Shown: one piece after another, positions 37,226-53,587 of the stretch
Layout: each line of letters starts with the position of its first letter
Position numbering within the stretch: the first letter of the stretch is position 1
NCBI GenBank assembly: GCA_964187785.1
Contig: OZ076409.1
Span: 67,768,001-67,832,000, forward strand
Direction of reading: 5' to 3'
Source: Amphiscolops sp. MND2022
Lineage: Eukaryota
Length of the DNA: 64,000 nt
Notes under the pieces: model-generated
Seen by the model: only the letters and a program-made list of their open reading frames with translations
Databases searched by the model: none
Told to the model about the DNA's origin: nothing
Position numbers and translations under genes: made by a program

Positions 37226-37961
37226 GACAGGATCTCATAGATCATACATTTACAAATACGTGAAATAATGCACTGTTGACAAATTTACTGCTTTAAAACA
37301 TGGAGTAAACGTCTCATCGAGAATTTGACTTCCGTGACACTGCATACCAGATAAAACACAATCTGTAGTTTCGGGGTTTTTGACGTCATAAGTTGACTTT
37401 GGCATTTCTGGACGTCTTTTCTATTGCTGTCGTCACTTTCGCGTTCTTCAGTGTTTGCACGGGGTGTGTATTGTTTTATTTAGGGGCTGCTGGGAGGTGG
37501 TCGTCTCTATGTTGCTTTTCCGTCTTTCGACTGATTTCTGGGTACGTGCCAGGTCGAGCATGTTTTTGTTAGAGTTTTTCAAAAATTTGCCACTAAACTG
37601 GTGGACGTTACAATAAGACAAAGACAGATAGAAACTCGTGAGATGTTTGGGACGTTCAAGTCTGTTTTTTTCCCAATCGAACAATTCAAAGTTCTTGAAA
37701 ACGTGGCATACAGAAGCAGAGACGTTGAGAAATGGTAACAAGCTTGGTAATTAACGGCGGTCAGTAGTATGGGGATTCCCGATACGGGCCACAAAAACCC
37801 CAAAAATTAAAAGTCCTCAAAACCATTGATTTTAAGCACTTTTTAGAAAACAAATCATCAAAAACAGTGTTTTGCCATGAAGCAAAATTCACTAACCTCT
37901 ATGATGCGCGAAAGCTATCGCGAAGCTACGCAATGTGTAATAATAACACGTTGCTGTACAG

Positions 37962-38165
37962 CCAGCATTAATGCACAACCAGCATTAATGCACAACCAGC
38001 ATTAATGCACAACCAGCATTAATGCACAACCAGCATTAATGCACAACCAGCATTAATGCACAACCAGCGTTAATGCACAACCAGCGTTAATGTACAGCCA
38101 GCATTAATGCACAACCAACGTTAATGTACAACCAGCATTAATGTACAACCAGCGTTAATGTACCG
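37962..38165 (+). repeat. 12 x 17-bp tandem repeat CCAGCATTAATGCACAA in the TIR (mirror copy 53185-53388)
   Basis: Counted directly. The unit contains the palindrome GCATTAATGC. Confidence 0.95.
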
Positions 38166-38208
38166 GCGCATACGTTATTCTTATATAACTACAACTAACA
38201 CATTTTTG

Positions 38209-38461
38209 TCTCCCATAGCCTAGTGGTTATAGCATTGACTAAAGTTAAGGCTTCGGCCGGAGTGTTTGGGGTTCACTTCTATCCAACGTCCCCCAGTCTT
38301 TGTTACAACTTACATGTTATGGGAGAATAATCACCAATGGCACAGTTCTTAAAAAGGATAATCCCTGCTGTGGAAACTCTTAGTGGAACGGACTCCCGAT
38401 GGGCTTTGAGTTTACCATAGGCATGCCAATGCATATGCTAATGAGCATGCCTATGGGTTTT
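38209..38461 (+). ncRNA. Candidate tRNA-like structured small RNA in the left TIR (core 38209-38326)
   Basis: TTATATAA about 25 nt upstream; A-box TAGCCTAGTGG; 9-bp closing stem TCTCCCATA/TATGGGAGA; GGC-TTCG-GCC hairpin; GGAGTG/CACTTC arm; further hairpins; first T4 run at 38458-38461. Confidence 0.5.
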
Positions 38462-38501
38462 GCGTAGCTTCGCGTATTTTTCAACTTTTTCATCTTAATA
38501 A

Positions 38502-39326
38502 ATGTATGAAACTCCGTCTCTTCATAAGTTTGGTTATTCTAGTGAACAGCTAAAACTGAGGGAATATCAGGAGCTAAAAGATATGATAAAAAGCCAAGAA
38601 AAATTAGCCCAAATAACCCATTCCAAATTAAAAGAAGATTTGCAACGCGATTTTGAAAATGACATAGAAAATCAAGAGAAATTAATAGAAGAAAAAATAC
38701 TAGACGTGGTAGCTATCGCGAAGGGGCATCAAACACTAGACCCACAGGAAATTCAAGATGTTTTATTAAACACAAAGTTGATGAATGATATTTATTCCCA
38801 GTTTTCAGACCTTTCAAAAACCATAAATAAATTAGAACAAAATATGAAAAAATCTTTCGCCGAACAAAGAACTGCTTTAGTAAATGAGGTACTAAATTTA
38901 ATACACAACAATAGTTTTGAAATGTTAACAGTCCGTAATTTAAAGTTTATGAGTCAGGTGGGTCAAGCTGGAATGATTTTAAATGAAGATGAAATTAATA
39001 AAATTTTTAATAGCCTAGATCAAAATAAAATTACTATAACTAACAACATAATTCAACTGCTTTATGACAAAGGCTTGTTCGATTCCTTTCCCAATAAAGA
39101 TCAAGCTTTTGCAAATTATCTAACTTTTAGTGAATCCTATTTAAAGGAAAAGTATGGAAAAACAATACCTACTTCAGATGGTGAATATTATCTGTCGGAT
39201 TTAGAATATTCTACCAGACAATCAATTCTGGAGTCATTGAAAAAAGATTCCTATAAAGACCTTGTTGATATGAAACACAGAATGAAATTAACACCAACGG
39301 AAATAAATTTCATTTTATATGATTAA
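38502..39326 (+). CDS. Polinton ORF1, coiled-coil-rich protein of unknown function (274 aa)
   Basis: Long intact ORF with TAATAAATG start and an E/K/Q-rich heptad N-half. Confidence 0.85.
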   Translation: MYETPSLHKFGYSSEQLKLREYQELKDMIKSQEKLAQITHSKLKEDLQRDFENDIENQEKLIEEKILDVVAIAKGHQTLDPQEIQDVLLNTKLMNDIYSQFSDLSKTINKLEQNMKKSFAEQRTALVNEVLNLIHNNSFEMLTVRNLKFMSQVGQAGMILNEDEINKIFNSLDQNKITITNNIIQLLYDKGLFDSFPNKDQAFANYLTFSESYLKEKYGKTIPTSDGEYYLSDLEYSTRQSILESLKKDSYKDLVDMKHRMKLTPTEINFILYD

Positions 39327-52125: not shown

Positions 52126-52173
52126 TTATTAAGAAAAAAATCCTTTTTTCTCAGCTCCGCGAAGCTGCGCGCA

Positions 52174-52389
52174 TTATAGATTAAATTGTTTGAATCCACT
52201 AGCGGAAATGTTATTTATAAATTCTTGCCTATCTTTTGATAATGTTTTCTTATGTGTGAAACTCTGCGGCTTCGATGAATTTTTTCCATGATTTTGATTT
52301 TGATTGTGAAGCTGTGTGCGAGAGCTGTCGCGTAGCTGCGTGGGTTGGATAATTTTATATTGAGTTGAATAATTCTTAATTTTCTTCAT
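52174..52389 (-). CDS. Small basic Polinton protein, 71 aa
   Basis: TAATAAATG start. C-terminus EFINNISASGFK is conserved (EFINNIAASGFK) at the syntenic position in the relic at 18840-19049. Confidence 0.75.
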   Translation of the reverse strand: MKKIKNYSTQYKIIQPTQLRDSSRTQLHNQNQNHGKNSSKPQSFTHKKTLSKDRQEFINNISASGFKQFNL

Positions 52390-52805
52390 TTATTAGGTTT
52401 GAAAGTTTGATAGTATAAATTTAGTACTGCATTTTTGAACCCAATTTTATTTGTGAGATACAGTGTGTATAAACAATACGCCGCGCAATAACTGTCGTTG
52501 GTCTGAATTTGATATTCTGAATAAATACCATTTTTAATATGATTAAGTATATTAGTTGGGGGTGGGCATCCATATGAATCAAAATAATTTTGATTTGTAA
52601 ACATAACCCAATGTGTTCCCACTGAGGGATGTAAGTTAACTATACCACTGGTAGTGGTAAATTTATCATCTCTCATGTATATTCCACATGGAATATTTAA
52701 TTCATTAAGTATTTCTTTTATTTTTACATTGGAAGTTGCTTCGTTTTTTAGTCCGTATTTTTCAACAAATTCTTTGAATGATAAATAATTGCGAAGCTGC
52801 GCCAT
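52386..52805 (-). CDS. Adenain-like cysteine maturation protease, 139 aa
   Basis: GIVNL...GTHWV (His), YFDSYGCPPP (Asp), QIQ...SYCAAYCLY (Gln/Cys). Confidence 0.95.
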   Translation of the reverse strand: MAQLRNYLSFKEFVEKYGLKNEATSNVKIKEILNELNIPCGIYMRDDKFTTTSGIVNLHPSVGTHWVMFTNQNYFDSYGCPPPTNILNHIKNGIYSEYQIQTNDSYCAAYCLYTLYLTNKIGFKNAVLNLYYQTFKPNK

Positions 52806-52887
52806 TTATTAGTTATTTTTCATTGGTGTGTATTAATGTTGTGTGAAGCTGTGCGTGGTTAAAATTATTTCCCATGTGGTAAAAATA

Positions 52888-53587
52888 CAAAACCCATAGG
52901 CATGCTCATTAGCATATGCATTGGCATGCCTATGGTAAACTCAAAGCCCATCGGGAGTCCGTTCCACTAAGAGTTTCCACAGCAGGGATTATCCTTTTTA
53001 AGAACTGTGCCATTGGTGATTATTCTCCCATAACATGTAAGTTGTAACAAAGACTGGGGGACGTTGGATAGAAGTGAACCCCAAACACTCCGGCCGAAGC
53101 CTTAACTTTAGTCAATGCTATAACCACTAGGCTATGGGAGACAAAAATGTGTTAGTTGTAGTTATATAAGAATAACGTATGCGCCGGTACATTAACGCTG
53201 GTTGTACATTAATGCTGGTTGTACATTAACGTTGGTTGTGCATTAATGCTGGCTGTACATTAACGCTGGTTGTGCATTAACGCTGGTTGTGCATTAATGC
53301 TGGTTGTGCATTAATGCTGGTTGTGCATTAATGCTGGTTGTGCATTAATGCTGGTTGTGCATTAATGCTGGTTGTGCATTAATGCTGGCTGTACAGCAAC
53401 GTGTTATTATTACACATTGCGTAGCTTCGCGATAGCTTTCGCGCATCATAGAGGTTAGTGAATTTTGCTTCATGGCAAAACACTGTTTTTGATGATTTGT
53501 TTTCTAAAAAGTGCTTAAAATCAATGGTTTTGAGGACTTTTAATTTTTGGGGTTTTTGTGGCCCGTATCGGGAATCCCCATACTACT
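52888..53587 (-). repeat. Right TIR (700 bp)
   Basis: Reverse complement of 37763-38462. Confidence 0.97.
52889..53141 (-). ncRNA. Second copy of the candidate tRNA-like structured RNA (core 53024-53141)
   Basis: Mirror of 38209-38461. Confidence 0.5.

Follow-up and report, generated by a model that had tools for sequence, protein, structure and literature searches.

Gene-invading small palindromes, among them the GC clusters of mitochondrial genomes and the repeats of Rickettsia, have been known for decades and still lack a mechanism. In the portions of the literature cited here, the yeast mitochondrial cluster GC42 is 42 nt long, has a short target duplication and is mostly intergenic (PMC4478555, PMC6140425), and the Rickettsia palindromic elements span ~150 bp and carry a conserved peptide (PMC10969869). 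Here we describe a 12-bp unit in an intact Polinton/Maverick element, named family A, at positions 37763–53587 of a 64,000-nucleotide stretch of the genome of Amphiscolops sp. MND2022 (contig OZ076409.1, positions 67,768,001 to 67,832,000; hereafter the window), where short peptide islands interrupt the proteins of the element. The islands are best explained as insertions of this 12-bp DNA unit, which is probably a selfish double-mini-hairpin micro-element copied whole during Polinton replication.

Each arm of the unit falls into the sequence class of the mini-hairpin DNAs d(GCGNAGC) and d(GCGNNAGC) of Kimoto and Hirao (PMC13037366). According to the sections of that review cited here, mini-hairpins melt at 70–76 °C, resist exonucleases and require a GC-GC or CC-GG stem and a GNA loop in order to fold, a stability that standard models fail to predict. 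They are also described there as binding single-stranded DNA-binding protein (SSB) poorly, as present at phage and plasmid origins and promoters, and as able to disturb sequencing.

A unit built from two GNA mini-hairpin sequences

The unit has the motif GCG-N(1-2)-AGCT-N(1-2)-CGC, which occurs 37 times in the element, grouped in 18 clusters, and not once in any of 200 dinucleotide-preserving shuffles of it; none lies in the remaining ~48 kb of the window. Single arms number 94, against a shuffle mean of 2.3 (maximum 8), and no GC-type arm is present in the relic region 18000–22500. These counts agree with a sequence-only reading of the window, which had proposed enrichment over background and absence from a relic at 18.4–19.8 kb. 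The peptide islands listed in that reading are all found in open reading frames (ORFs), and the motif arrays (including the 11-bp array at 45407–45497) and the copies in and just inside the terminal inverted repeats (TIRs) have the DNA sequence it claimed. Its description of the element as very AT-rich holds in direction but not in degree, the interior having 32% GC and the flanks 37%.

Each strand of the unit begins with GCGNAGC or GCGNNAGC, the published ultra-stable sequence, and the arms conform to GC-GNA-GC or GC-GNNA-GC, or carry a CC-GG stem. In a matrix of the form X-C-GNA-G-Y, the G..C combination is enriched 26.5-fold in family A, and C..G and G..C are enriched 10.2-fold and 4.8-fold in the sister family B described below. 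Non-pairing cells reach at most 2.2-fold and host flanks lie at ~1, so that clear enrichment is limited to the GC-GC and CC-GG stems, the two that fold according to the part of the review cited (PMC13037366). Counted by site, the arm loops are A (77), T (46), C (27) and G (14). A correspondence between loop frequency and the published order of melting temperature (Tm), visible in pooled counts, was discarded because it is lost at site level except for GAA. The duplex Tm computed for the unit (56–62 °C at 5 micromolar) lies below the published hairpin Tm, under conditions that are not comparable, and is not used as evidence. Judged from sequence, the units may fold as mini-hairpins in their flanking context.

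Genome-wide, the 12-mer pattern has 3664 matches and the 14-mer pattern 5326, compared with 134 and 226 for the reversed controls. All 20 sampled matches of one 16-mer (160 matches genome-wide) fall in family A elements. The first 50 places of the 12-mer include 42 within six elements of this family; of the other eight, two are by the protease gene of another Polinton, three in a hairpin-rich host repeat and three unlinked.

Blunt insertion at unrelated sites

At least 40 sister copies of the family A element, 87–98% identical, exist in the genome (40 were scored out of 2382 candidates, giving 43 matches); the loci compared comprise 30 close copies (in halves), 6 more distant members, 10 loci of family B and 5 of a third family, C. 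Between copies, unit sites are polymorphic in 12-bp steps. With the window copy as reference, coding sequence shows 386 distinct indels, 160 of them 12, 24 or 36 bp long, and 188 non-coding indels include lengths of 10, 11, 12 and 13 bp, these counts being alignment-dependent and not independent events. The intact 12-mer occupies 78 mapped positions over 37 elements, some neighbours perhaps being one site, and the comparison of positions between copies reveals filled and empty alleles at unrelated sites. Most sites are polymorphic, many of them singletons, but a few are fixed or nearly so (site 40328 is filled in 31 of 31 elements). Copies show empty, single and double alleles at site 38706 in ORF1, and the empty allele of site 52791, which encodes MAQLRN, is found in 6 of 29 elements.

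Insertion is blunt, uses no local template and has struck numerous unrelated positions; it favours pyrimidine-purine steps and leaves an overlap of 0–2 nt at the ends. Among 133 filled/empty rows, which count arrays several times, junction overlap is absent from 44 of the 54 12-mer rows, and 65 of 69 14-mers retain two bases, mostly GC. Dropping rows that adjoin an existing unit leaves 24 isolated blunt sites, half of which (12) are at TG/CA (3.1 expected) and 16 of which have a 1-nt overlap (7.4 expected). The empty alleles of isolated sites hold no part of the unit, indicating insertion without a local template. No fixed short target-site duplication was found in the filled and empty alleles, the 12-mers being blunt. 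The unit thus differs from miniature inverted-repeat transposable elements, which have terminal inverted repeats and a target duplication, in possessing inverted ends of only 3 nt and no duplication; it differs from minisatellites, in which new units arise only beside an existing one, in occupying the 24 isolated sites.

Two unit sequences make up 65 of the 82 site-by-unit combinations, and the perfect palindrome formed by an A/A arm pair is seen 3 times where 18 are expected; together, the dominance of two sequences and the shortage of palindromes indicate that units are copied whole. Random joining of independent hairpin oligonucleotides through AGCT was rejected on the same A/A deficit, as arm pairs are far from independent.

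Once in place, units expand locally by slippage into arrays of 10–12 bp periodicity; the window copy contains an 11-bp array between the capsid and integrase genes and 12-bp arrays at 39864–39911 and 49365–49421. Some islands are now half-decayed, nine units having one arm intact and two having none. Further coding arrays of 10–12 bp lie at 40450–40494, 46452–46490, 39925–39953 and 48240–48277, and some of these resemble heavily decayed units.

Tolerance in genes, timing and decay

Within genes, surviving units always add a multiple of three, lie in variable regions and stay out of the stop-making phase. The 61 coding sites are distributed over the three phases as 10, 37 and 14, with both orientations in use and the stop-making phase empty (0/10). 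The signal lies at the level of the DNA, as had been proposed. At 18 unit sites in the polymerase, column conservation averages 0.49 against a background of 0.66 (p about 1e-5), and only two of the 18 exceed the median. Because the AlphaFold model of polymerase residues 118–1288 (mean pLDDT 54) was too weak for loop placement, the sites were judged by this alignment conservation. In alignments, the polymerases of family B and of outgroups 39–53% identical lack islands, and the loop at the capsid unit site is shorter in most capsid homologues. The islands are, on these alignments, lineage-specific in-frame insertions, which matches what the sequence-only reading had anticipated of them.

At four terminal-repeat sites, a copy filled at one end is also filled at the other in 2/2, 6/8, 12/12 and 2/5 cases; a fifth site has no filled allele among 16 scored. 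This mirroring implies that insertions mostly predate integration and arise in replicating elements. Measured over 284 transversion sites, four-gamete incompatibility is 9% at distances below 30 bp and climbs to 66–75% beyond 100 bp, showing that copies recombine freely. Units spread by this recombination and erode by CpG decay, which affects 7.7% of CpGs in arms and 6.9% elsewhere, against 2.2% at non-CpG positions; CpGs in arms decay about three times as fast as non-CpG positions and give no indication of being protected. Copies carry 19–45 units, spaced 63–1840 bp apart.

Sister families, host repeats and foreign loci

Family B (loci L110–L141), whose capsid and polymerase are 81% and 72% identical to those of family A, has the family A unit in none of its ten loci. 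It carries its own paired-hairpin units of 18 and 21 bp in its genes, with other stems; one arm has a loop that reads GAA or, in the opposite orientation, TTC. One such unit has 146 exact matches genome-wide; 12 of 12 sampled fall in family B, at two unrelated sites. All 21 contexts of family B units are pyrimidine-purine steps (T^A, T^G or C^A), the search for empty sites in this family being noisy, with only some rows clean. What looked like a fixed TA target duplication in family B is better read as units inserted bluntly at T^A, T^G and C^A. Units related to those of family B also occur in some family A copies near 41577, 41725 and 52703, suggesting exchange between the families.

Family C is 80% identical to family A in the capsid, 82% in the integrase and 48% in the polymerase, and its ATPase 2 is very similar. 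Hairpins in genes number 87 per 14.3 kb in family A, 8–12 per 12.5 kb in family B and 2 per 12 kb in family C, so that in these three families the trait tracks kinship of the polymerase and not of the capsid module. At the family C terminus (L247:2218–2390, with equivalents in L250, L253 and L259), a run of overlapping mini-hairpins fills the last ~250 bp; it is possibly both a terminal signal and the source of units. The analysis adds three points to the sequence-only reading, namely that the unit pairs two GNA mini-hairpins, that it inserts bluntly at motif-free sites and that family B carries a comparable unit of different sequence.

Runs of mini-hairpins are also found in an abundant unclassified host repeat (L091, L094 and L096, with copies in L059, L104, L114 and L256). 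Two of its loci hold the commonest 12-mer, in one of them in place of the hairpin run of the other copies.

Close relatives of the window proteins were not found in viral and metagenome contigs. An alignment query returned 104 distant foreign loci; scoring covered the 91 that measure 2 kb or more, the 13 shorter ones being excluded. A metagenome Polinton polymerase (L171:2440–2620) has an in-frame tandem insert of ~60-bp units with mini-hairpins, located in a loop that the window polymerase likewise has in expanded form; the ~60-bp unit resembles contig-end sequence.

A model for copying and its alternatives

A probable route by which the micro-element is copied runs as follows. Hairpins would fold on the single strands exposed by strand-displacement replication, and a nascent or broken 3′ end would switch onto an existing unit through 0–2 nt of overlap and copy it. 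As each strand refolds on itself, the end would be released at the unit boundary and return to its own template. The agent would most likely be the polymerase of the element, with or without its HNH insert as a nicking activity.

The first alternative is that the units are selected signals, each conferring a small gain through exonuclease protection, as an SSB-free hairpin or as a priming, packaging or zinc-finger binding site. Mini-hairpins resist exonucleases, bind SSB poorly and sit at phage origins and promoters (PMC13037366, sections cited above), two families carry paired hairpins independently and a third has a terminal hairpin run, and a few sites, such as 40328, are fixed or almost so. 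This explanation nevertheless appears unlikely: the load and spacing of units vary widely, arms decay like other CpGs, the majority of sites are polymorphic with many singletons, and family C spreads without units in its genes despite its very similar capsid, integrase and ATPase 2. The unit load and spacing, the CpG decay and the unit-poor genes of family C likewise speak against the distributed packaging or condensation sites that the sequence-only reading had offered as one inference, and its other inference, a self-propagating micro-repeat, fits best.

Insertion by a host enzyme has a still lower standing, and we consider it quite improbable. Either templated insertion of the polymerase-theta type or an HUH transposase acting on single-stranded intermediates would be responsible, with the host repeat as first donor. 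The blunt junctions with 0–2 nt of overlap, the ability of templated insertions to copy distant sequence (PMC11292364, in the part cited) and the hairpin runs and commonest 12-mer of the host repeat would all be accommodated, but the confinement of units would not, given the 20 of 20 sampled 16-mer matches and 42 of the first 50 12-mer places in family A, the 12 of 12 sampled family B matches in family B, and the near absence of units from family C in the same host. Insert lengths are also much more exact than the 3–30 bp cited for templated insertions in that part of PMC11292364.

Ordinary minisatellite slippage with local duplication accounts for arrays that change copy number in unit steps and for the many 14-mer rows overlapping a GC, but the 24 isolated sites, where one and the same 12-mer is inserted and the empty alleles lack any part of it, refute slippage as the sole cause and leave it very little credibility. 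A sequencing or assembly artefact, conceivable because mini-hairpins can disturb sequencing (PMC13037366, as above), is practically negligible, since up to 27–31 copies that integrated separately have units in common, and the units have undergone CpG decay, keep the reading frame, avoid creating stop codons and appear as mirror images in the terminal repeats.

Several observations weigh against a selfish unit copied by the Polinton polymerase. Folding in this context and the copying enzyme are both inferred. The link to the polymerase is based on three families, all of which keep the HNH motif, and the stem enrichments count related copies more than once. At site level, the Tm order holds only in that GAA comes first. 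The host repeat with the commonest 12-mer means that the unit is not strictly confined to Polintons, and dispersed units were present in 0 of the 91 foreign loci scored, many of which are fragments of low power. Some terminal-repeat insertions are one-sided (3/5 and 2/8), and the commonest unit avoids phase 0 (0/21), where it would create no stop codon. A large share of the CpG decay measured may have occurred after integration, and hairpins in active lineages may therefore be under weak selection.

More tentatively, the 12-bp double mini-hairpin might be regarded as a mobile element without genes, perhaps smaller than any other on record, that would owe its movement to single-strand structure alone, as read by the Polinton polymerase. 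Polinton lineages could then have acquired frame-preserving units (here of 12, 18 and 21 bp) independently, and such units would form a class of parasites common to strand-displacement replicons and would keep supplying new protein loops. The unit is only 12 bp long, the physics of the hairpin has been measured, one genome supplies dozens of empty/filled pairs and the sister families are built-in controls. With these features, a single purified polymerase and a set of synthetic oligonucleotides would suffice to test how the unit is copied. Mini-hairpin DNA also gains a role in genome evolution, and caution is advised with low-complexity peptide islands of virus-like proteins, which can be DNA parasites.

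The carrier element and its neighbourhood

The carrier has TIRs of ~700 bp each, a 6-bp target duplication and 11 long ORFs (Table 1). Pfam identifies an integrase (PF00665), a double-jelly-roll capsid protein (PF21738) and a packaging ATPase (PF04665), with two A32-like ATPases in all and an endonuclease VII-like domain within the polymerase. The polymerase itself has no Pfam match to PF03175, which is present in homologues 39–47% identical to it and places it with the protein-primed B polymerases. Two further ORFs have provisional labels: 50815–52125 is probably a minor capsid protein, in view also of its gene context, and 52386–52805 probably a protease.

Between the two ATPase genes (47632–48000) are a non-coding 11-bp array and an inverted repeat with 52-bp arms; family C holds a related array that varies in 51-bp steps. 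A polymerase segment near 42611–42685 is replaced in several sister copies, and gene order is not alike between families A, B and C; both point to module exchange.

Table 1 Features of the family A Polinton and its hairpin units (window coordinates)
Feature	Position	Strand	Remarks
Intact Polinton/Maverick, family A	37763–53587	no strand	6-bp target duplication at 37757–37762 and 53588–53593
Left terminal inverted repeat	37763–38462	+	17-bp tandem array; double-hairpin units 37908–37931
Left-repeat unit sites	37803, 37846, 37891, 38281		polymorphic in sister copies
12-bp double mini-hairpin unit just within left repeat	38462–38473	no strand	intact in 23/37 elements
ORF1 14-nt unit (net +12)	38706–38719	no strand	one arm decayed in window copy
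ANATANAT array and decayed units in ORF2	39864–39990	+	27 alleles over 31 elements
Protein-primed-type DNA polymerase B	40141–44007	+	endonuclease VII/HNH-like insert
Polymerase B units	40328, 40708, 40729, 41471, 42128–42151		sister copies carry additional sites
Major capsid protein, double jelly roll (PF21738)	44129–45388	-	12-bp unit 44581–44592 (GGEAAQS)
Non-coding 11-bp tandem array of unit, capsid-integrase gap	45407–45497		length differs between copies
Integrase (rve)	45501–46379	-	unit 45763–45774 (CSFAK), further stacked in sister copies
A32-like ATPase 1	46414–47631	+	units and decayed units near 46495–46517 and 46775
A32-like ATPase 2	48012–49067	+	unit array 48289–48473 (GANAGAVAEANAN)
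ORF, no family label	49056–50189	-	units 49296–49430 (ANATANAT) and 49964–49987 (REASRAAS)
ORF, no family label	50216–50785	-	units 50348–50373 (SYRESYR)
ORF	50815–52125	-	half-decayed units 51450–51472 (EASHTAPH); no Pfam match
Non-coding units 52154–52170 and 52306–52341	52154–52345		numerous alleles between copies
ORF	52386–52805	-	12-bp unit 52791–52802 directly after start codon (MAQLRN); no Pfam match
Right terminal inverted repeat	52888–53587	-	mirrors left; units 53419–53442

Exons at 13846–14472, 31527–33459, 53790–53870 and 54800–54980 flank the Polinton on both sides and resemble a TRPM-type channel gene, and the element seems to sit in an intron of this gene. Elsewhere in the window, 18400–19821 and 20762–21570 are two relics, not one, of protease and minor-capsid genes of a more distant Polinton; they show 53–73% identity and are without units. 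Positions 1–9700 hold a degenerate long terminal repeat (LTR) retrotransposon with an integrase-like ORF and a strong negative GC skew.

Comparison with known systems

No description of such units in Polintons was found in the open literature, supplements and subscription journals being outside the scope of the search. Polintons with an HNH-bearing polymerase share with the carrier the terminal repeats, 6-bp duplication, integrase, capsid, ATPases and HNH-like insert (PMC10748475). The portion of that account cited here makes no mention of dispersed micro-insertions, and the HNH-like insert might correspond to the HNH of nematodes and oomycetes. The nearest host process is templated insertion by polymerase theta, as presented in the cited part of PMC11292364.

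In the mini-hairpin review (PMC13037366, sections cited), the five commonest four-base loops at site level here (GATA, GACA, GTTA, GAAA and GGAA) are all among the stable variants, and the 3′ T of the unit corresponds to the variant listed as most stable. The loops GCAA and GTAA, also stable there, are not seen among the units here. Those sections describe single hairpins at origins and promoters, whereas here paired units are inserted in genes.

The Rickettsia palindromic elements, as characterized in the part of PMC10969869 cited, resemble the unit in being palindromic DNA inserted in frame in unrelated genes; the unit is distinct in its 12-bp length, its use of three phases and both orientations and its lack of a conserved peptide. 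The yeast mitochondrial GC clusters and small inverted repeats of organelles are likewise GC-rich hairpins in an AT-rich, recombining replicon, polymorphic for presence and absence, prone to merging and shuffling, and mobilized by an enzyme that is not known, according to the portions cited (PMC4478555, PMC6140425). Compared with GC42, the unit described here measures 12 bp, is inserted bluntly, is largely coding and resides within a nuclear virus-like element.

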